A stretch of 64,000 nt of DNA, taken from Escherichia phage VpaE1_ev78. The notes beneath the pieces were generated by a model. That model did not search any database. It saw nothing but the letters and a program-made list of their open reading frames with translations, and was not told where the DNA came from. The position numbers and the translations under genes were made by a program. Of this stretch, positions 2,717 to 28,109 are shown piece by piece. Numbering within the stretch: the first letter of the stretch is position 1; every line of letters begins with the position of its first letter. Location of the stretch: sequence record LR597663; one strand, given 5' to 3'.

Positions 2717-2794
2717 TCTCTGTTTAGCTCAGCTTGGTAGAGCGTTCCGTTTGGGGCGGTAAGGCCGGAGGTTCAAGTCCTCCAACAGAGACCA
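2717..2794 (+). tRNA. tRNA-Pro (anticodon TGG)
   Basis: Hand-folded cloverleaf: 7-bp acceptor CTCTGTT/AACAGAG, D-loop AGCTTGGTAG, T-arm GGAGG-TTCAAGT-CCTCC, anticodon loop TTTGGGG, CCA encoded. Confidence 0.7.
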
Positions 2795-2801
2795 AATTAA
2801 T

Positions 2802-2879
2802 GTTCCAGTAGACAAAATGGTAAAGTCACCACTCTTTCAAAGTGGATATCTGAGGGTTCAAATCCCTTCTGGAACGCCA
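2802..2879 (+). tRNA. tRNA-Glu (anticodon TTC)
   Basis: Acceptor GTTCCAG/CTGGAAC, anticodon arm CCACT-CTTTCAA-AGTGG, T-loop TTCAAAT, CCA encoded. Confidence 0.7.
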
Positions 2880-2885
2880 GTTTTG

Positions 2886-2910
2886 ACAGAAGACCAATTG
2901 CAGCAAACTT
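2886..2910 (+). repeat. tRNA-spacer motif ACAGAAGACC-N5-CAGCAA, copy 1; followed about 60 nt later by GGTCTGG
   Basis: Motif recurs at about 3053, 3449 and 3535, partial copy near 6168. Confidence 0.6.
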
Positions 2911-2970
2911 AATCTTATTCATCTGAAGGTAAATCGGACAAAGAAGAGATTTGGTCTGGTCATTAAGAAT

Positions 2971-3047
2971 TGCGGGTATAGAGAAAGGGCGTCTCACATG
3001 TCTCATTAGCATGGTATCGGCAGGTTCGACTCCTGCACCCGCCTCCA
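2971..3047 (+). tRNA. tRNA with CAT anticodon (Met / initiator / Ile-lysidine type undetermined)
   Basis: T-arm GCAGG-TTCGACT-CCTGC, acceptor with 1:72 mismatch, anticodon stem built on palindromic CATG; position 37 appears to be T, which is atypical. Confidence 0.5.
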
Positions 3048-3052
3048 AATTT

Positions 3053-3077
3053 ACAGAAGACCGTTTACAGCAATATT
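3053..3077 (+). repeat. tRNA-spacer motif ACAGAAGACC-N5-CAGCAA, copy 2
   Basis: TTACAGAAGACCGTTTACAGCAA; GGTCTGG about 58 nt downstream. Confidence 0.6.
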
Positions 3078-3131
3078 TATTAAATTTTTAGCGGAAAAAA
3101 TTGAAAGATACGGTCTGGTAACACTAAACAT

Positions 3132-3208
3132 GGTTAGGAAGCACATAAGGTATGTGCGGTCGCCTGTTAAGCGAATGGCACAGGGTTCGAATCCCTGACT
3201 AACCGCCA
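3132..3208 (+). tRNA. tRNA-Asn (anticodon GTT)
   Basis: Acceptor GGTTAGG/ACTAACC, anticodon loop CTGTTAA, T-arm CAGGG-TTCGAAT-CCCTG, CCA encoded. Confidence 0.7.
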
Positions 3209-3217
3209 AATTTAAAT

Positions 3218-3305
3218 GTGTCGTTATCCCGTAGATGGTAGCGGTGGGGACTGTAAATCCCTTGTCATTGAGACTCGGTAGGTTCGACTCCTACACGGCA
3301 CACCA
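3218..3305 (+). tRNA. tRNA-Tyr (anticodon GTA), long variable arm
   Basis: 88 nt; acceptor GTGTCGT/ACGGCAC, anticodon arm GGGGA-CTGTAAA-TCCCT, T-loop TTCGACT. Confidence 0.7.
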
Positions 3306-3310
3306 ATAAA

Positions 3311-3388
3311 GGTTATGTAGTTTAATTTGGTTAAAATACTCCCCTGTCACGGGAGATGATGAGGGTTCAAATCCCTTCGTAACCGCCA
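3311..3388 (+). tRNA. tRNA-Asp (anticodon GTC)
   Basis: Acceptor GGTTATG/CGTAACC, anticodon arm CTCCC-CTGTCAC-GGGAG, T-loop TTCAAAT. Confidence 0.7.
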
Positions 3389-3448
3389 ATTTTGAGAGGG
3401 CTATTTAGCCCCTCCCTTAAAGAGTTCTTACGAGTATTCTTTAAAGGA

Positions 3449-3472
3449 GCAGAAGACCAAATACAGCAAGTT
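3449..3472 (+). repeat. tRNA-spacer motif, copy 3 (GCAGAAGACCAAATACAGCAA)
   Basis: Same motif family; GGTCTGG about 67 nt downstream. Confidence 0.55.
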
Positions 3473-3534
3473 ATTTAAAATTTCAAGCCAATTTAATTTT
3501 GAAAAATTTAAAACTTGGTCTGGCTCAACAAATT

Positions 3535-3560
3535 TACAGAAGACCGTTTACAGCAAAACT
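3535..3560 (+). repeat. tRNA-spacer motif, copy 4 (TTACAGAAGACCGTTTACAGCAA)
   Basis: Identical core to copy 2. Confidence 0.6.
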
Positions 3561-3591
3561 TAACAATCTATTTCTCCGGTAAAGAAAAGGC

Positions 3592-3626
3592 GAAGGTTCG
3601 ATTCCTTCACTCGGCAGATGTCGAGT
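3592..3626 (+). ncRNA. tRNA-like minihelix: canonical T-arm (GAAGG-TTCGATT-CCTTC) directly followed by a 7-bp acceptor-like hairpin (ACTCGGC-AGAT-GTCGAGT); no D or anticodon arm found
   Basis: T-loop consensus present but no complementary 5-prime acceptor strand within 120 nt upstream; complementary strand lies immediately downstream. Confidence 0.4.
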
Positions 3627-3668
3627 TGGTGTAATGGTAGTACTTAAGATGATAAACAACGGTCTGGT

Positions 3669-3688
3669 AATTATCTTTGTAGATAAGT
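3669..3688 (+). repeat. hairpin element TTATCT-TTGT-AGATAA preceded by GGTCTGG
   Basis: Second copy with inverted loop (TTATCT-ACAA-AGATAA) at about 3795-3810; the two flank roughly 105 nt. Confidence 0.55.
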
Positions 3689-3792
3689 TATTAAGCTTAC
3701 CTGTGAGTATGCGACCACAAAGGGTGAAAGGGTAAATTCTAGATTTAAACCCAAAAAGGCACATCGCTACAGACCTTAAGCAAGTCTGGGTA

Positions 3793-3812
3793 GCTTATCT
3801 ACAAAGATAATT
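3793..3812 (+). repeat. hairpin element TTATCT-ACAA-AGATAA, second copy, preceded by GTCTGGG
   Basis: Reverse complement of the copy at 3669-3688. Confidence 0.55.
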
Positions 3813-3816
3813 TAAT

Positions 3817-3892
3817 GGAAGTGTAGCAGAATGGTGATGCGGCAGACTTTTAATCTGACAGGCGATGGGTTCGAATCCCTCCACTTCTACCA
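3817..3892 (+). tRNA. tRNA-Lys (anticodon TTT)
   Basis: Acceptor GGAAGTG/CACTTCT, anticodon loop CTTTTAA, T-loop TTCGAAT; two outer T-stem mismatches. Confidence 0.6.
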
Positions 3893-3896
3893 ATAT

Positions 3897-3973
3897 GGTT
3901 CAGTCGCAGATAAGGTAATGCAAGGGTCTCATAAGCCCTATGAATGTGGGTTCGATTCCCATCTGAACCTCCA
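3897..3973 (+). tRNA. tRNA-Met (anticodon CAT)
   Basis: Acceptor GGTTCAG/CTGAACC, anticodon arm AGGGT-CTCATAA-GCCCT, T-loop TTCGATT, CCA encoded. Confidence 0.65.
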
Positions 3974-3974
3974 A

Positions 3975-4050
3975 GCTGGTATAGTTAAGAAGGTTATAAC
4001 ACTCCCCTGATAAGGGAACATCGGTGGTTCGATTCCACCTACCAGTACCA
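3975..4050 (+). tRNA. tRNA-Ile (anticodon GAT)
   Basis: Acceptor GCTGGTA/TACCAGT, anticodon loop CTGATAA, T-arm GGTGG-TTCGATT-CCACC. Confidence 0.65.
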
Positions 4051-4065
4051 ATTTCAATAAAGTTG

Positions 4066-4094
4066 TTGACATTGAGATGTGACTACTTTATAGT
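4066..4094 (+). promoter_or_regulatory. sigma70-like promoter (TTGACA, 17 nt, TATAGT)
   Basis: Near-consensus hexamers with 17-nt spacer inside the tRNA array. Confidence 0.6.
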
Positions 4095-4298
4095 AACCTT
4101 AGTTTTCGTTGCGTAGCGTCTATTTTGCAAATTTAAAATAAATGCAAACGACAATGTTTTTCTGGCAGTAGCTTGATAGGCTAAACACCAGTGAGGTCTT
4201 CCAATCCCTCATCAAAGAATTTGGCGTACTCGCCCACGGTATGATTAATAAGGTGGGCATCTTTAAGGGCTTTCTAAGAGAGTCTTTAAAGATAATTA

Positions 4299-4380
4299 CG
4301 GGGCGTATCTCAGCGGTCTTCTAAACCGCCGTTAACCGAGTAAGTGGAGTATGCGGGTTCGAGTCCTGCCGCCTCGACCA
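4299..4380 (+). tRNA. atypical tRNA-like gene (82 nt): acceptor and T-arm canonical, anticodon-like hairpin with loop CTTCTAA (TCT, Arg-like), no recognisable D-arm, 23-nt extra region
   Basis: Acceptor CGGGGCG/CGCCTCG, T-arm GCGGG-TTCGAGT-CCTGC, CCA encoded; the only strong internal hairpin is GCGGT-CTTCTAA-ACCGC right after positions 8-9. Confidence 0.45.
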
Positions 4381-4394
4381 ATTTTGGAGAAATC

Positions 4395-4742
4395 ATGAAA
4401 ACTTGTATTAGGTGCAAACTTAGCAAGGATGAAAATGATTTCTACATGAAAGATGGTAGGAGAACTCATTCATACTGTAAAAAGTGTGTTAATGAGCAAA
4501 CCATAGAAAGACAAAGAGCACTTAAACTCTCAGCTATTGAGTACAAAGGTGGGGTTTGTCACGATTGTGGTAAAAAGTATCATCCAGCAGTGTATGACTT
4601 CCATCATTTGAATCCTTCAGAGAAAGATTTTAACATTGGTCATAGGAAAAGCCTTAAGTTCTCTCAAGAACTAAAAGATGAACTTGACAAATGTGTTTTG
4701 CTATGTTCAAATTGCCATAGGGTAAGACATGCAAAGTATTAG
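4395..4742 (+). CDS. HNH homing endonuclease
   Basis: Motif DFHHLNPSEKDF...CVLLCSNCHRVRH; ORF-track start lies inside the upstream tRNA, so trimmed to ATG at 4395 (RBS GGAGA). Confidence 0.8.
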   Translation: MKTCIRCKLSKDENDFYMKDGRRTHSYCKKCVNEQTIERQRALKLSAIEYKGGVCHDCGKKYHPAVYDFHHLNPSEKDFNIGHRKSLKFSQELKDELDKCVLLCSNCHRVRHAKY

Positions 4743-4885
4743 TTAGCAGATTACTTAGACGACCTAAGCGGGTCTTCCTGTAGGGAGGTGGTCTGTATCT
4801 CATGTTTTCCAGAACATGTAAATAATCTGAGAAGAAGCTTGACAGTGTTGAGATAACAGGGTAAGCTTCGAATTATAGTTTTAAT

Positions 4886-4956
4886 AGGGGTGAGCTATGG
4901 CAGCAATAGAGTCTCCAAAATTCTTGATTAGAGTTCGAATCTCTACACCCCTGCCA
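4886..4956 (+). tRNA. tRNA-Trp (anticodon CCA), short with reduced D-arm
   Basis: Acceptor AGGGGTG/CACCCCT, anticodon arm AGAGT-CTCCAAA-ATTCT, T-arm TAGAG-TTCGAAT-CTCTA; about 71 nt. Confidence 0.55.
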
Positions 4957-4970
4957 GAACAGGTGCTTGT

Positions 4971-5375
4971 ATGAAACTTTGTAGAAAATGTTCTCAAGAA
5001 AAGCCTTTAAGCTGCTTTCATAAAAGAGGTAATGGCTATCAGTCTGCTTGCAAAGATTGTAAAGCTAAGTACTCAGCAAAGAGATACAAAGAAGACCCTA
5101 CTTATAAAGCAAAAAGAAAAGTTAGGGCAAAATATGACAAAAAGAGGAACAGAGAGTTCCTTAGTAGATATAAAAAGTTTTGCAAATGCAGAATATGTGG
5201 CGAATCTGAGCCAGTAGCTTTGGATTTTCATCACTTAGACCCTAAAGAGAAAGATTTTGCTCCAAGCAATCTTAAAACTTACTCTAGGGGCACTATTAAG
5301 CGTGAAGTCCGTAAGTGTGTTGTGCTTTGTTCAAACTGTCATAGGAAAGTTCATGAAGGACTGTTAAGTATTTAA
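4971..5375 (+). CDS. HNH homing endonuclease (paralogue of 4395..4742)
   Basis: Motif DFHHLDPKEKDF...CVVLCSNCHRKVH; RBS AGGTG. Confidence 0.8.
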   Translation: MKLCRKCSQEKPLSCFHKRGNGYQSACKDCKAKYSAKRYKEDPTYKAKRKVRAKYDKKRNREFLSRYKKFCKCRICGESEPVALDFHHLDPKEKDFAPSNLKTYSRGTIKREVRKCVVLCSNCHRKVHEGLLSI

Positions 5376-5388
5376 CAGTCTTATTAGG

Positions 5389-5476
5389 GGTAGGTAGCGG
5401 CTAATGGTAGCCAAACTGTCTTGAAAACAGTTGCCACTGTAGAGATACGGTGAGGGTTCGACTCCTTTACTTACCG
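5389..5476 (+). tRNA. tRNA-Ser (anticodon TGA), long variable arm
   Basis: Acceptor GGTAGGT/ACTTACC, anticodon arm ACTGT-CTTGAAA-ACAGT, T-loop TTCGACT; CCA not encoded. Confidence 0.65.
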
Positions 5477-5633
5477 CCTAATAAGATTTAAAGCCAAGCT
5501 TCATTCGGATGTTGCTTTGGTATCCCGCGTGTATTGTTGTACACACTGATAAAGCACCTAGTAGGTGTCACGGAGAAGAGATAATATCAAGCTCTCCAAA
5601 GGTTCTAGTCACCGGATTAAACAAGACTATGCA

Positions 5634-5654
5634 AAGACCTTTTTAGGTCTTTTT
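5634..5654 (+). terminator. possible intrinsic terminator or processing hairpin (AAGACC-TTTTTA-GGTCTT plus TTTT)
   Basis: Short hairpin followed by T-run inside the tRNA array. Confidence 0.3.
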
Positions 5655-5733
5655 AGAGGGCTTCTAAGGTTATTACAGCTTGTTGTGGAACCTTGTTGCT
5701 TAGGTTCTTAGAAGTTCTCTAAAAAGATTTAAT

Positions 5734-5811
5734 GGGAGATTGACGGTAATTGGTAAACCTATCTCGCTTAGAACGAGATGTTTGAGGGTTCGAATCCCTT
5801 GTCTCCTACCA
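5734..5811 (+). tRNA. tRNA with TAG anticodon (nominally Leu) but type-I short variable arm
   Basis: Acceptor GGGAGAT/GTCTCCT, anticodon arm TCTCG-CTTAGAA-CGAGA, T-arm GAGGG-TTCGAAT-CCCTT; variable region about 5 nt. Confidence 0.55.
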
Positions 5812-5818
5812 AATTAAT

Positions 5819-5894
5819 GCAGGTGTAGCAAAATGGTTATGCGGCTGACTCTTAATCAGTAAGACGATGGGTTCAATTCCCTCCACCTGTACCA
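5819..5894 (+). tRNA. tRNA-Lys (anticodon CTT)
   Basis: Acceptor GCAGGTG/CACCTGT, anticodon loop CTCTTAA, T-loop TTCAATT; similar to the 3817 tRNA. Confidence 0.6.
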
Positions 5895-5899
5895 AAAAT

Positions 5900-5975
5900 G
5901 GGGTCATAGTTTATATGGTTAAAATTCGAGTTTTGCAAACTTGGGAACTGAGTTCAATTCTCAGTGACTCCACCA
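5900..5975 (+). tRNA. tRNA-Ala (anticodon TGC)
   Basis: Acceptor GGGGTCA/TGACTCC, anticodon arm CGAGT-TTTGCAA-ACTTG, T-arm CTGAG-TTCAATT-CTCAG. Confidence 0.65.
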
Positions 5976-5981
5976 ATTAGT

Positions 5982-6056
5982 GCATCCATAGTTTAAACGG
6001 GAAAATTACAGTCTTCCAAACTGAGGTTGAGGGTTCGATTCCCTCTGGATGCTCCA
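5982..6056 (+). tRNA. tRNA-Gly (anticodon TCC)
   Basis: Acceptor GCATCCA/TGGATGC, anticodon loop CTTCCAA, T-arm GAGGG-TTCGATT-CCCTC. Confidence 0.65.
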
Positions 6057-6063
6057 AATTAAT

Positions 6064-6139
6064 GCTCCTATCGTATAATTGGCTATTACGGTTGCCTTGT
6101 AAGTAACTTATCAGGGTTCGAATCCTTGTGGGAGCACCA
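6064..6139 (+). tRNA. tRNA-Thr (anticodon TGT)
   Basis: Acceptor GCTCCTA/TGGGAGC, anticodon arm GTTGC-CTTGTAA-GTAAC, T-loop TTCGAAT. Confidence 0.65.
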
Positions 6140-6236
6140 ATTTAGAGGTCAAGTGAAAGACCGCTTTGAGTCAACTGAAGACCGTAACAAATTCCACGGA
6201 GTTGAGTTAGCGGCACAACTCCAGACCTCTTCTCAC

Positions 6237-6311
6237 ACTCGCTTAGTTTATATGGTAAAACACCACCCTTACAAGATGAAGAAAAAGGTTCAAGTCCTTT
6301 AGTGAGTACCA
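6237..6311 (+). tRNA. tRNA, probably Val (anticodon TAC); weak anticodon stem
   Basis: Acceptor ACTCGCT/AGTGAGT, T-arm AAAGG-TTCAAGT-CCTTT, anticodon loop CTTACAA with two stem mismatches. Confidence 0.45.
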
Positions 6312-6312
6312 T

Positions 6313-6390
6313 GTTCCAGTATCCCAATTGGCAGAGGATGCAAGCTCAAACCTTGTACTAGTGATGGTTCGAATCCATCTTGGAACACCA
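6313..6390 (+). tRNA. tRNA with CAA anticodon (nominally Leu) but type-I short variable arm
   Basis: Acceptor GTTCCAG/TTGGAAC, anticodon arm GCAAG-CTCAAAC-CTTGT, T-arm GATGG-TTCGAAT-CCATC. Confidence 0.5.
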
Positions 6391-6395
6391 ATTTT

Positions 6396-6471
6396 GCAGG
6401 ATTAGTTCAAATGGATAGAGCAACAGTCTACGAAGCTGTTAATAGGGGTTCAAATCCCTTATCCTGCGCCA
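6396..6471 (+). tRNA. tRNA-Arg (anticodon ACG)
   Basis: Acceptor GCAGGAT/ATCCTGC, anticodon arm ACAGT-CTACGAA-GCTGT, T-loop TTCAAAT. Confidence 0.65.
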
Positions 6472-6490
6472 ATTTAAAGAGGCTATTTAG

Positions 6491-7048
6491 ATGAGATATT
6501 TGAAGTATGCTTCATGGATTTTCTTAGCTTTGTTAGAACCATTTGCAGCAATCTTAGCAGTTATCTTAGCACCTTTTGTAGTTCCATTCTACAGTGAGAA
6601 GAAAGGACACTTACCTTTCGGGTTCAGATGGATGGAGACATATGACAACCCAATTGATGGTGATGAAGGTCACGTTAAAAGATGGGCTAATATTAGATGG
6701 ATTGGTAAACTAGGTGTCTACATGCAAAGAGTCGGATGGCTCTGGAGAAACAAAGCTTATAACTTCTCTTACCATGTGTTAGGAAGAGATGTAAAAGATG
6801 TTACTAAGTGGAAAGGTAATATCAACGTAAGTTCTAACCCTGAAGATAATCAGACAGGTTATCTCCTAATGTGGAACAGTAATGCTTGGGGATTATTCGC
6901 TTTTACCCCATCAATTAAAATCTTTGGTAAACAGTTTTACTGGAGAATTTATATTGGGTGGAAGCTAAAAAGTGTTGTCCCAGAAGAAAGAGCATTCTCA
7001 AGGGAAAGAGTTATGTTGGCATTCTTTATTCATCCACTAAGAAAGTAA
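6491..7048 (+). CDS. Trp-rich membrane protein of unknown function (185 aa) inside the tRNA array
   Basis: RBS AAAGAGG; hydrophobic N-terminal segment WIFLALLEPFAAILAVILAPFVVPF; many Trp residues. Confidence 0.65.
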   Translation: MRYLKYASWIFLALLEPFAAILAVILAPFVVPFYSEKKGHLPFGFRWMETYDNPIDGDEGHVKRWANIRWIGKLGVYMQRVGWLWRNKAYNFSYHVLGRDVKDVTKWKGNINVSSNPEDNQTGYLLMWNSNAWGLFAFTPSIKIFGKQFYWRIYIGWKLKSVVPEERAFSRERVMLAFFIHPLRK

Positions 7049-7056
7049 AGATTTAA

Positions 7057-7132
7057 AGGGGATTAGTTTACAAGGTTAAAACCTCGGTCTTTGAAATCGA
7101 AGAAGTTGGTTCAATTCCAACATCCCCCGCCA
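7057..7132 (+). tRNA. tRNA-Gln (anticodon TTG)
   Basis: Acceptor AGGGGAT/ATCCCCC with 1:72 mismatch, anticodon loop CTTTGAA, T-arm GTTGG-TTCAATT-CCAAC. Confidence 0.6.
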
Positions 7133-7134
7133 AT

Positions 7135-7213
7135 GCTCCATTACTCCAATTGGCAGAGAGGCCAGACTTAAAATCTGTGTTATGTATCGGTTCGAATCCG
7201 ATATGGAGTACCA
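7135..7213 (+). tRNA. tRNA with TAA anticodon (nominally Leu) but type-I variable arm (about 7 nt)
   Basis: Acceptor GCTCCAT/ATGGAGT, anticodon loop CTTAAAA, T-arm ATCGG-TTCGAAT-CCGAT. Confidence 0.5.
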
Positions 7214-7218
7214 AATTT

Positions 7219-7294
7219 AGCGGTATAGCATAACTGGCAATGCAGCAGCCTCTGAAGCTGTCCTATTAAGGTTCAAATCCTTATGCCGCTGCCA
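7219..7294 (+). tRNA. tRNA-Gln (anticodon CTG)
   Basis: Acceptor AGCGGTA/TGCCGCT, anticodon arm GCAGC-CTCTGAA-GCTGT, T-arm TAAGG-TTCAAAT-CCTTA. Confidence 0.6.
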
Positions 7295-7325
7295 CTTCTA
7301 AGGATTCTTACGAGAGTCCTTAAAT

Positions 7326-7401
7326 GTGGCCTTATCATAAATGGTAATGACCCATGCTGTGAACATGGTCTATACGGGTTCAAATCCCGTAGGTCACCCC
7401 A
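7326..7401 (+). tRNA. tRNA-His (anticodon GTG)
   Basis: Acceptor GTGGCCT/AGGTCAC, perfect anticodon arm CCATG-CTGTGAA-CATGG, T-arm ACGGG-TTCAAAT-CCCGT. Confidence 0.7.
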
Positions 7402-7406
7402 ATTTA

Positions 7407-7481
7407 TAGTCCAAGTAGCTTATATGGTTAAAGCGCGTGTCTGAAAAACATGAGAAGAGGGTTCAAATCCCACTGGACTAC
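7407..7481 (+). tRNA. tRNA-Phe (anticodon GAA)
   Basis: Acceptor TAGTCCA/TGGACTA, anticodon arm CGTGT-CTGAAAA-ACATG, T-loop TTCAAAT; CCA not fully encoded. Confidence 0.6.
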
Positions 7482-7499
7482 CAATTTCAAAGGTGCTTA

Positions 7500-8234
7500 A
7501 TGAAAGAGATGACAGAACAAGGTAAGGAGATTTTTAATCTCTTAAAAACCGGTAAAGGGTTCTCTAACCCACTTATTACTGGTGCAGCAGTTCTCGGTGG
7601 AACCGTAGCTGCTTCTACATCACTTGTAAGCTCTATTAGTTCTGTAACAGACCCTACAATGAAGGAGAAACTTGTTGCTGCTGGACTTACAACAGTCCTT
7701 CTAAACAGCTTTACAACAAGCCTTACAAGCACTACAGCAACTACTAAAACTCTGACAGACTACGGTCAAAAGTCTATTGATGAGTTTTCATCACGTATGC
7801 AGGTAGCAAAGGGGTATTCCAATGTTATGGGTGCAGCAGGAGAACAAGTTGGTTGTACACCATTCAGTGGTATCATGGGTGTTGCTACAGAGTATGGTCA
7901 AAAAGCTATTGACATGATGAACAGTACACTAGATAGTGTTAATGGTGTGTTAAGTGACTTGCAAGATGCTATTGATAAGGGTCTTGATACTGTTTCTGAT
8001 TTAGCTAATCAGGCTGTTAGTAAGATTAATGAAGGTATTTCAAAGATTACAGCTTATGCAGATGAAGTTGTGCAGATGATTGAAGAAGAAGCTGCCCTTA
8101 TTGCAGAGTACCTTAAAACGAATATCAATGGGTTCTTAGCAGGTATCTTACCAGACTGGTTTGATGATGCCTGTAAAACTGGTGTGATTGACACTATTGC
8201 AACACCAGAAATGAAGAGCGCATTACAGAAATAA
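7500..8234 (+). CDS. hypothetical Ser/Thr/Ala-rich protein (244 aa) inside the tRNA array
   Basis: ORF-track start overlaps tRNA-Phe; trimmed to in-frame ATG at 7500; low-complexity T/S/A/G-rich middle. Confidence 0.5.
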   Translation: MKEMTEQGKEIFNLLKTGKGFSNPLITGAAVLGGTVAASTSLVSSISSVTDPTMKEKLVAAGLTTVLLNSFTTSLTSTTATTKTLTDYGQKSIDEFSSRMQVAKGYSNVMGAAGEQVGCTPFSGIMGVATEYGQKAIDMMNSTLDSVNGVLSDLQDAIDKGLDTVSDLANQAVSKINEGISKITAYADEVVQMIEEEAALIAEYLKTNINGFLAGILPDWFDDACKTGVIDTIATPEMKSALQK

Positions 8235-8236
8235 AT

Positions 8237-8329
8237 GGAAGATTAACCCTAAAAGGTAAGGGAGCAGTTTGCTAAACTGCCAGTAGCTGAGAAATCGGTG
8301 TACCAGTTCAAGTCTGGTATCTTCCTCCA
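8237..8329 (+). tRNA. tRNA-Ser (anticodon GCT), long variable arm
   Basis: 93 nt; acceptor GGAAGAT/ATCTTCC, anticodon arm GCAGT-TTGCTAA-ACTGC, T-arm ACCAG-TTCAAGT-CTGGT; starts 3 nt after upstream stop. Confidence 0.7.
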
Positions 8330-8333
8330 ATTT

Positions 8334-8409
8334 GAATCCGTGACAGAAATGGCTATGTGCCTGTCTGCAAAACAGGTTTATAAGGGTTCGAGTCCCTTCG
8401 GATTCTCCA
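8334..8409 (+). tRNA. tRNA-Cys (anticodon GCA)
   Basis: Acceptor GAATCCG/CGGATTC, anticodon arm CCTGT-CTGCAAA-ACAGG, T-arm AAGGG-TTCGAGT-CCCTT. Confidence 0.7.

Positions 8410-20111: not shown

Positions 20112-28109
<7,998 letters not shown>

Follow-up and report, generated by a model that had tools for sequence, protein, structure and literature searches.

Whether an RNA that begins and ends as a tRNA does, but has no hairpin where the D-arm should be, can be a working tRNA is the question raised by an 82-nucleotide (nt) element, with an encoded CCA, at positions 4299–4380 on the plus strand of a 64,000-nt stretch of DNA from Escherichia phage VpaE1_ev78 (sequence record LR597663), the whole of which we refer to as the window. 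The original prediction, made from the sequence alone, left the choice among a structurally divergent tRNA-Arg, a remnant associated with a homing endonuclease and a tRNA mimic. We found that the locus, a noncanonical tRNA-Arg(UCU) candidate, belongs to a family that is nearly restricted to phages, that its members carry arginine anticodons and share four helices, and that it is an allelic replacement for a canonical tRNA-Arg(UCU) carried by related genomes. It is probably a functional, structurally noncanonical tRNA-Arg(UCU), the D-arm of which has been topologically permuted.

Features of the locus and the response of gene finders

The acceptor stem of the element pairs CGGGGCG (4299–4305) with CGCCUCG (4370–4376; CGCCTCG in the DNA) through 7 base pairs (bp), and is followed by the discriminator A73 and the encoded CCA (together ACCA, 4377–4380). 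The T-arm (GCGGG-UUCGAGU-CCUGC, 4353–4369) is canonical and is stacked directly on the acceptor stem. The anticodon arm (4313–4329) consists of the stem GCGGU/ACCGC and the loop CUUCUAA, which contains the anticodon UCU at 4320–4322 as well as U33 and A37. These parts were all found where they had first been described, as was a 23-nt stretch between the anticodon hairpin and the T-arm; the gap between the acceptor stem and the hairpin is 7 nt (TATCTCA). The shorter gap is made up of the connector UAU (4306–4308), the trinucleotide CUC (4309–4311) and a single A (4312), which resembles the residue at position 26 of a tRNA in lying between a D-stem-like helix and the anticodon stem. The longer gap is made up of an 8-nt joiner, CGUUAACC (4330–4337), which links the 3′ strand of the anticodon stem with the D-stem-like helix and stands in the place of a variable loop, the trinucleotide GAG (4338–4340) and a D-loop-like segment of 12 nt, UAAGUGGAGUAU (4341–4352), which runs directly into the T stem. 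The CUC and GAG trinucleotides are the 5′ and 3′ strands of the D-stem-like helix, as described below, and the overall order of the molecule, written with the family consensus, is acceptor/UAU/[CUC]/A/anticodon arm/CGUUAAYC/[GAG]/UAAYUGGAGUAU/T-arm/acceptor.

ARAGORN reported 26 tRNAs in the window, in a cluster that spans 2718–8409, but none at 4299–4380. The Rfam tRNA model RF00005 matches 4299–4377 with 31.7 bits, against a gathering score of 29, which is the lowest of its 24 matches in the window, and the alignment deletes the D-arm (4 nt replacing 15) and accommodates 20 nt as an insertion in the variable region. None of the tools applied recovered a cloverleaf of the normal form at other boundaries, in agreement with the original prediction. 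By four of five architectural criteria, and by its Rfam score, the locus is a tRNA: the acceptor stem with its discriminator and CCA, the T-arm and the anticodon arm are in place and the Rfam threshold is exceeded, while the D hairpin that should lie between positions 9 and 26 is absent.

The Rfam threshold also separates other genes of the cluster. Three of the genes called by ARAGORN, at 2971–3047 (Met), 3218–3305 (Tyr) and 4886–4956 (a Trp gene of 71 nt), fall under the gathering score and may be further atypical phage tRNAs; in the record of phage D1-2 the counterpart of the Trp gene appears as tRNA-Pseudo.

A family of homologues in unrelated phages

The source genome is that of a Felix O1-like myovirus (Felixounavirus), and positions 3800–5400 of the window have 99% identity to the corresponding regions in phages wV8, Alf5 and heid. 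A BLAST search with 4280–4395 against the phages in GenBank returned 262 records, in which the copies from unrelated taxa outside Felixounavirus were 83–90% identical to the query. The family was seen in five phage taxa, namely Ounavirinae, Asteriusvirus (phage 121Q), Stephanstirmvirinae (phi92 and W22), Vequintavirinae (W70 and BIS47) and Demerecviridae (AmPh_EK80 and Kamaji), as well as in the unclassified jumbo phage SE_PL and in many metagenomes. Pattern scans of IMG/VR and of metagenomes enlarged the collection to an alignment of 128 distinct, gap-free 82-nt sequences, to which the family counts given below refer unless another number is stated. When one genome per species was scanned for 185,579 bacterial and archaeal species, only three matches were obtained, all of them on contigs of metagenome-assembled genomes; the family looks phage-specific. 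With a covariance model trained on the first 51 sequences, members scored 91–104 bits, two divergent members 55–58 bits and ordinary tRNAs at most 35 bits; the window copy, at 102.3 bits, is far above what chance would give.

Two contigs each carry two members of the family. Contig L043 (12999–13080 and 13348–13429) has a CCU member and a divergent UCU member, and contig L058 has an ACG member (2689–2766) and a UCU member (4029–4110). The ACG member of L058 is divergent, with a joiner of only 3 nt, and has the same helix and the same D-loop-like segment as the others. Because the two members on each contig differ in anticodon or in body, we conclude that the architecture has diversified within single genomes.

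Of the first 51 unique members, 34 encode the CCA. In six members with no encoded CCA (L009, L015, L021, L025, L034 and L092), the acceptor helix extends by 12–15 bp into the flanking sequence on the 5′ and 3′ sides to give a duplex of 19–22 bp, which could be a processing stem of the RNase III type or the trace of an insertion.

In public records the gene is unannotated, or is labelled ‘tRNA-OTHER’ or pseudo, and in the record of phage 121Q it is annotated as ‘tRNA-Leu(taa)’. We rejected the last assignment by inspection, because the UAA of CGUUAAUCG, taken as an anticodon, is flanked by a stem of at most approximately 2 bp and would have U as its residue 37; the UCU hairpin, in contrast, shows perfect covariation. 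The Felix O1 reference genome (NC_005282.1, approximately 25951–26032; L225, 5018–5099) contains the family tRNA without annotation, and an annotated HNH coding sequence (L225, 5070–5462) overlaps its final 30 nt; the start of that coding sequence has probably been called too far upstream.

Covariation in the classical stems and in a fourth helix

Across the alignment the acceptor, anticodon and T stems are paired in 96–99% of cells, with double changes in 15 of their 17 pairs. In the acceptor stem 98.8% of the cells are paired and all seven pairs covary, as do all five pairs of the anticodon stem; the T stem is paired in 99.1% of cells and has double changes in three pairs, the equivalent of G53:C61 being invariant. 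The connector UAU is likewise invariant (128 of 128).

The alignment also contains a fourth helix, which joins columns 11–13 (CUC, 4309–4311) to columns 40–42 (GAG, 4338–4340) and encloses the anticodon arm. Each of its 384 cells is paired, 54 of them being changed on both sides and none broken, and at least nine versions of the helix occur: CUC/GAG, CAC/GUG, CGC/GCG, CUU/AAG, CGG/CCG, CAG/CUG, CCC/GGG, CGU/ACG and CUG/CAG. The pair 12:41 is UA in 87 sequences, GC in 22, AU in 18 and CG in one, and the pair 13:40 is CG in 113, GC in seven, UA in six and UG in two. This pairing was not selected for by the search, because the four variable columns (12, 13, 40 and 41) had been left as N in the metagenome pattern. 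The mutual information amounts to 1.27 bits for 12:41 and 0.52 bits for 13:40, and a blind scan for mutual information places 12:41 among the classical stem pairs. The first description of the element as lacking a D-arm, with some 23 unpaired or weakly paired nucleotides after the hairpin, is incomplete: there is no D hairpin, but the CUC/GAG pairing is kept in all 128 members, GAG being drawn from the supposedly unpaired stretch, and the 12 nt that follow it are near-invariant and D-loop-like.

Other pairings in the same region were less successful. A fourth pair in the D-stem-like helix, 4312:4337 (columns 14 and 39), would be a standard pair in only 16% of the sequences, although the two columns covary (AC in 82 sequences, CA in 20, AU in 12 and CG in five) and A.C and C.A alternate. 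Pairing of CUC with the second GAG (4347–4349) gave nine broken cells and no compensatory change, and failed in every variant. The 3-bp hairpin placed within the 23-nt stretch by the minimum free energy fold of ViennaRNA had 30 of its 153 cells broken among 51 sequences, again with no compensatory change, and was rejected for that reason. The joiner has a C, a UU and an AA that do not vary in the main family, a constancy that was partly imposed by the search pattern.

Arginine identity

In the metagenome scan in which the anticodon was left free, the anticodons were UCU in 86 members, CCU in three, ACG in three, UCG in one and ACU in one, that is, 93 of the 94 members carry arginine anticodons. 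C35 does not vary, and the residue at position 36 is G in the ACG and UCG members and U in all the others. The discriminator is G in 76, A in 45, U in five and C in two of the 128 members, G or A together accounting for 121 (approximately 95%). The identity set of bacterial arginyl-tRNA synthetase (ArgRS) comprises A/G73, A20, C35 and U/G36, of which A20 is the main element (PMC9976931), and the family matches this set in its discriminator, in C35 and at position 36, while the invariant A after GG, which lies 3′ of the anticodon arm, is a candidate for A20. Because the anticodons are confined to the arginine set, the body plan is tied to one amino-acid identity. This restriction fits a single origin, with later drift of the anticodon only among those triplets that keep C35.

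The one member outside the arginine set, a metagenomic copy with the anticodon ACU in an otherwise typical body (L155, 121–202, minus strand), would misread the serine codons AGU and AGC if it were charged with arginine; an error of sequencing, a pseudogene or a tRNA with a recoding function are possible explanations.

The window copy has a G.U pair at 3:70 of its acceptor stem and, with it, the acceptor determinants of E. coli alanyl-tRNA synthetase (AlaRS), namely G2:C71, G3.U70, G4:C69 and A73 (4300–4302 with 4373–4375; 4377). In other tRNAs G3.U70 can by itself be sufficient for acceptance of alanine (PMC9976931). It is present in nine of the 128 members and is not a trait of the family.

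Replacement of the canonical gene and demand for an AGA decoder

In E. coli O157 typing phage 15 (L001, 2101–2177) a canonical tRNA-Arg(UCU) of 77 nt occupies the same slot as the atypical gene, with the same leader before it and the same downstream sequence, TAGTTAGCAGATTAC, after it, and its anticodon loop, CUUCUAA, is identical. A query with the canonical allele matched 160 phage records, mostly of Ounavirinae, and the atypical allele matched approximately 117; among the matches listed, no phage was in both sets. Model searches gave the same picture, in that Ro111lw, Moogle and typing phage 15 have the canonical gene without the atypical one, and Felix O1 and D1-2, like the window, have the atypical gene without a canonical UCU tRNA in the cluster. 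The atypical gene is located inside tRNA clusters, and in nine of ten large clusters from other phages it is the sole UCU tRNA. This occupation of the slot of the canonical allele, together with the arginine anticodons, the discriminator and the invariant C35, favours the first of the possibilities originally proposed, that of a structurally divergent tRNA-Arg.

No codons are rarer in E. coli than AGA and AGG, which are read there by a scarce tRNA; the two are uncommon in enterobacterial hosts but abundant in the genes of phages. In the long open reading frames (ORFs) of the window, AGA is the commonest arginine codon (39% of arginine codons; 16.5 per 1000 codons) and AGG makes up 10% (4 per 1000). 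The only other phage tRNA-Arg in the window has the anticodon ACG and reads CGN. The atypical tRNA would supply a decoder for AGA and, by wobble, for AGG, its RNA being processed by RNase P, charged by the ArgRS of the host and used on the ribosome.

The same findings bear on the tRNA mimic of the original prediction, that is, a tRNA-like decoy with a role outside translation, for instance as bait for a host nuclease or toxin that acts on tRNA-Arg(UCU), or as a sponge or regulator of ArgRS or of a modification enzyme. The family does keep its anticodon loop and its marks of arginine identity, the very parts that a decoy for an Arg-tRNA-specific factor could not lose; moreover, phage tRNAs are described as a counter-defence against tRNA-cleaving immunity in three reports (PMC10264068, PMC11555353, PMC11464382), and two contigs keep a canonical tRNA-Arg(UCU) alongside the atypical one. 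We nevertheless consider a decoy unlikely. In the AGA-rich Felixounavirus genomes the atypical gene is present instead of the canonical tRNA-Arg(UCU) and not beside it, its anticodon shifts only among arginine anticodons, as that of a decoder would, and it keeps a 12-bp acceptor/T stack, a canonical T-loop, the discriminator and the CCA, none of which is needed by a decoy for a nuclease.

The 12-nt segment and a proposed permutation of the D-arm

The 12-nt segment, UAAYUGGAGUAU, is near-invariant from GAG into the T stem, and we propose it as a functional substitute for the D-loop. It resembles a tRNA-Arg D-loop that has been relocated, as can be seen by comparison with the D-loops of the canonical tRNA-Arg of typing phage 15 (L001; AAUUGGAUA) and of the tRNA-Arg(ACG) of the window (AAAUGGAUA, at 6396). 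The trinucleotide GGA, at 4346–4348 in the window, lies within the 12-nt segment in all 128 members. Among approximately 790 distinct canonical tRNAs from the phage loci collected, 29 of the 35 tRNA-Arg genes (83%) have an A directly after GG, compared with 70 of the 756 others (9%); of the 26 tRNAs in the window, only tRNA-Arg(ACG) has it.

In canonical numbering, the connector UA-UCUC-A would provide the equivalents of U8, A9, the 3′ strand of the D-stem (22–25) and A26, and GAGU-AAYUGGA...A-U would provide those of the 5′ strand of the D-stem (10–13), A14, A15, Y16, U17, G18, G19, A20, A21 and U48. Every invariant base would then land on a position with a known tertiary contact, namely U8–A14, the A15–U48 Levitt pair and the contacts of G18 and G19 with the T-loop. 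The relocated GG would dock on the T-loop and form the elbow, the next A would be the A20 that is read by ArgRS, and the L-shaped core would be kept although segment 10–21, which normally joins 9 to 22, had been transferred to the junction of the variable region with 48. Such a permutation is non-circular, and a possible route to it is a tandem duplication of the internal region 10–48 followed by the loss of the outer partial copies. The phrase ‘no D-arm’ should be replaced by the statement that the elements of the D-arm are present but connected in a different order, which would explain why gene finders overlook the gene. The broader proposal, that these genes constitute a widespread class of arginine tRNAs, seen almost exclusively in phages, with a non-circularly permuted body at work in bacterial translation, in which the relocated segment 10–21 builds the elbow and presents A20, is one that we regard as a serious possibility, falling a little short of an even chance.

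The same secondary structure can be read formally as an extended anticodon arm in a three-way junction, and hence as that of a D-armless tRNA of the mitochondrial tRNA-Ser(AGY) kind, in which CUC/GAG would extend the anticodon stem, no tertiary core would exist and the 12 nt would be a flexible linker. We find this quite improbable. The mitochondrial tRNA has a remodelled T-loop and has no bulged bases for tertiary contacts, whereas the T-loop of the phage family is canonical (UUCRANY) and its G53:C61 equivalent does not vary. Furthermore, a flexible linker needs no conservation of UAAYUGGA, and yet this core is conserved in pattern-free BLAST and model matches, and in matches to a pattern that had left the segment free, very divergent members included, and it matches the D-loops of canonical tRNA-Arg down to the arginine-specific A after GG.

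A number of points weigh against a functional tRNA with a permuted D-arm. The invariance of the 12-nt segment was partly imposed by those search patterns that fixed it, and the equivalents of U8, A14, G18/G19, A20 and U48 are assigned from invariant bases, which cannot covary. The argument for the CUC/GAG helix is comparative throughout: the single-sequence z-score given by ViennaRNA was 0.04 and the 3-bp helix was not predicted, and RNAalifold, applied to the 128 sequences, gave the three classical stems only and left the CUC/GAG region unpaired. That energy-based tools should miss a 3-bp helix is unsurprising, because helices as short as the D-stem are held in tRNAs by tertiary contacts. When the sequences were ‘un-permuted’, ARAGORN called 128 of 128, compared with none of the 128 native sequences, but controls were called too (114 of 128 with a shuffled segment and 128 of 128 with a wrong segment); we have therefore not used this result as evidence, as it mainly measures spacing. 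Replacement of the canonical gene is not strictly exclusive, because L034 and L055 carry canonical and atypical UCU tRNAs together. In the window copy, G3.U70 and A73 might permit mischarging by AlaRS, and thus partial alanylation. Finally, the mature RNA, its aminoacylation and its use on the ribosome are deduced from sequence. With these points taken into account, a functional tRNA-Arg(UCU) with a permuted D-arm is still the reading that we consider probable.

Expression signals and neighbouring genes

A sigma-70-like promoter (TTGACA-17 nt-TATAGT, 4066–4094, plus strand), which agrees with the consensus at 11 of 12 positions, lies approximately 200 nt upstream of the tRNA and probably drives both the leader and the atypical gene. 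In a phi92-like phage (L004) a promoter that also agrees with the consensus at 11 of 12 positions ends 11 nt before the 5′ end of the gene. The leader of approximately 200 nt (4101–4298) is conserved, and is common to phages with the canonical allele up to about 4260; it has no match in Rfam. It contains an antisense ORF of 46 amino acids (4120–4260), which is annotated as hypothetical in Ro111lw.

Downstream of the tRNA, a gene for an HNH endonuclease of 115 amino acids (4395–4742, plus strand; a weak match to the Pfam HNH family, E = 0.0037) begins with an ATG at 4395, 15 nt past 4380 and thus after 14 intervening nucleotides, as had been noted at the outset. Its homologues are annotated as HNH endonucleases in Alf5 and Felix O1, and the ORF is inserted exactly between ...CCAATT and TAGTTAGCAG. 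The Felixounavirus locus occurs with the canonical tRNA-Arg, with the atypical tRNA alone, or with the atypical tRNA and the HNH gene; most Felixounavirus copies have no HNH gene, and the match to the window stops just past the CCA. Downstream sequence of sufficient length was available for 139 non-redundant loci; in 37 of these an ORF of at least 90 amino acids starts within 45 nt downstream of the tRNA, and in 102 there is none. Approximately 18 of the 37 adjoining ORFs are nuclease-like, and these fall into groups that are unrelated to one another: the HNH type of the window, two HNH_3 types, another protein with an HNH motif and a RAP-domain protein. At least three different HNH lineages, as well as other ORFs, adjoin the family tRNA, and from the presence of several unrelated nuclease groups we conclude that mobile nuclease genes have landed repeatedly at its 3′ end, a behaviour already known from the tRNA clusters of phages (PMC2330249). 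A constant linkage, in which the tRNA would be a component of a homing cassette, was rejected, since most copies have no HNH gene and several unrelated neighbours are found. The tRNA is independent of its HNH neighbour, and the HNH gene is optional. Co-conversion driven by such nucleases is a plausible route by which the tRNA could have spread between unrelated phages.

The 128 homologues and their compensatory changes in four helices mean that the element is not a remnant, and a degenerate pseudogene left by homing-endonuclease activity, or a processing signal for the HNH mRNA, is scarcely credible: the HNH gene adjoins the tRNA in the window, a nuclease-like ORF lies within 26 nt downstream at approximately 13% of the non-redundant loci and some GenBank labels (tRNA-OTHER, pseudo or tRNA-Leu(taa)) would suit such an origin, but most homologues have no adjoining nuclease, 102 of the 139 loci having no ORF of the size and distance just given, and a decaying gene could not show four covarying helices and near-invariant loops, kept by strong purifying and compensatory selection in five taxa of phages and in many environments.

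The Felixounavirus tRNA cluster has HNH genes at various points along its length, and closely related phages differ in them. A second one in the window, of 134 amino acids (4971–5375), has a similar N-terminal Cys-rich motif and lies directly after the tRNA-Trp gene. In the environmental phages L025 and L157 an RNA ligase (Pfam RNA_ligase with a PHA02142 OB domain) is encoded 38 nt downstream of the family tRNA, and in L123 and L174 a ligase-like protein is encoded by the next gene; these neighbours may hint at a link with tRNA repair.

Significance and comparison with known systems

A practical consequence concerns annotation. Many public phage genomes either omit the gene or give it a wrong label, among them the Felix O1 reference, in which an HNH coding sequence has been drawn over it, and such phages therefore appear to be without an AGA decoder that they very probably have. 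The altered junction between the D and anticodon regions might also make the RNA resistant to nucleases of the host or of rival phages that cut canonical tRNA-Arg, and, if so, this resistance would explain its spread across unrelated phages. A body plan that serves one amino acid in unrelated phages invites tests against tRNA-targeting defences, and could be of use as a scaffold for engineered tRNAs. Our literature search, the coverage of which left out many subscription papers, gave no account of a D-armless, noncanonical or permuted phage tRNA-Arg, and a 2020 review of non-canonical tRNAs does not mention phages.

The obvious point of reference is the canonical tRNA-Arg(UCU), such as E. coli argU or the gene of typing phage 15 in L001, with which the family shares the CUUCUAA loop, the kind of T-arm, the G or A discriminator, the CCA and the sequence AAYUGGA, as well as the slot and flanks in Felixounavirus and, presumably, the decoding of AGA and AGG. 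It differs in having no D hairpin between 9 and 26, in its length of 82 nt rather than 77, in being invisible to ARAGORN, and in its arrangement, the strands of the D-stem flanking the anticodon arm and the D-loop-like sequence lying 3′ of that arm.

For the neighbour of the tRNA, rather than for the tRNA itself, the parallel is SegB of phage T4, the product of a free-standing homing endonuclease gene in a phage tRNA cluster (PMC2330249). In both cases a small nuclease gene has been inserted among tRNA genes, is present in some close relatives and absent from others, and may be exchanged for a gene of another nuclease family at the same site; the HNH protein of the window is a candidate for such homing.

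The nearest structural relative is mitochondrial tRNA-Ser(AGY). In human mitochondrial tRNA-Ser(GCU) the connector that replaces the D-arm joins an extended anticodon stem, the tertiary core is lost and the T-loop is remodelled (PMC9427863). The phage tRNA is like it in having no D hairpin and in the pairing of its 5′ connector with sequence 3′ of the anticodon stem, but unlike it in keeping a canonical T-loop and a conserved GG segment, in amino acid and setting, and in that it must work with ordinary bacterial enzymes.

A segment order that departs from the textbook is also found in the circularly permuted tRNA genes of red algae described by Soma, in which, as cited in PMC10085705, the 3′ half comes first and a circular intermediate restores a normal tRNA. 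In the phage gene, by contrast, the acceptor strands are at the ends of the gene, and it is the mature RNA itself that would be rearranged.

Closer in kind are the hammerhead ribozymes, for which Eckert et al. (2023) described non-circular permutations, no such permutation being known at that time in other natural RNAs (PMC10085705). As in those ribozymes, conserved elements of the phage RNA would have been re-ordered by something other than a plain exchange of 5′ and 3′ ends, with their positions in three dimensions presumably kept; the RNA class is different, and the spatial arrangement of the tRNA is a proposal drawn from its sequence conservation. If the arrangement is as we propose, the phage family would include the first natural tRNA with a re-ordered core, and tRNA would apparently be the second class of RNA, after the hammerheads, with a natural non-circular permutation. 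A re-ordered D-arm would then be acceptable to RNase P, to ArgRS, to EF-Tu and to the ribosome of bacteria alike, and the family would offer a natural test of what is necessary topologically and what is necessary only in space.

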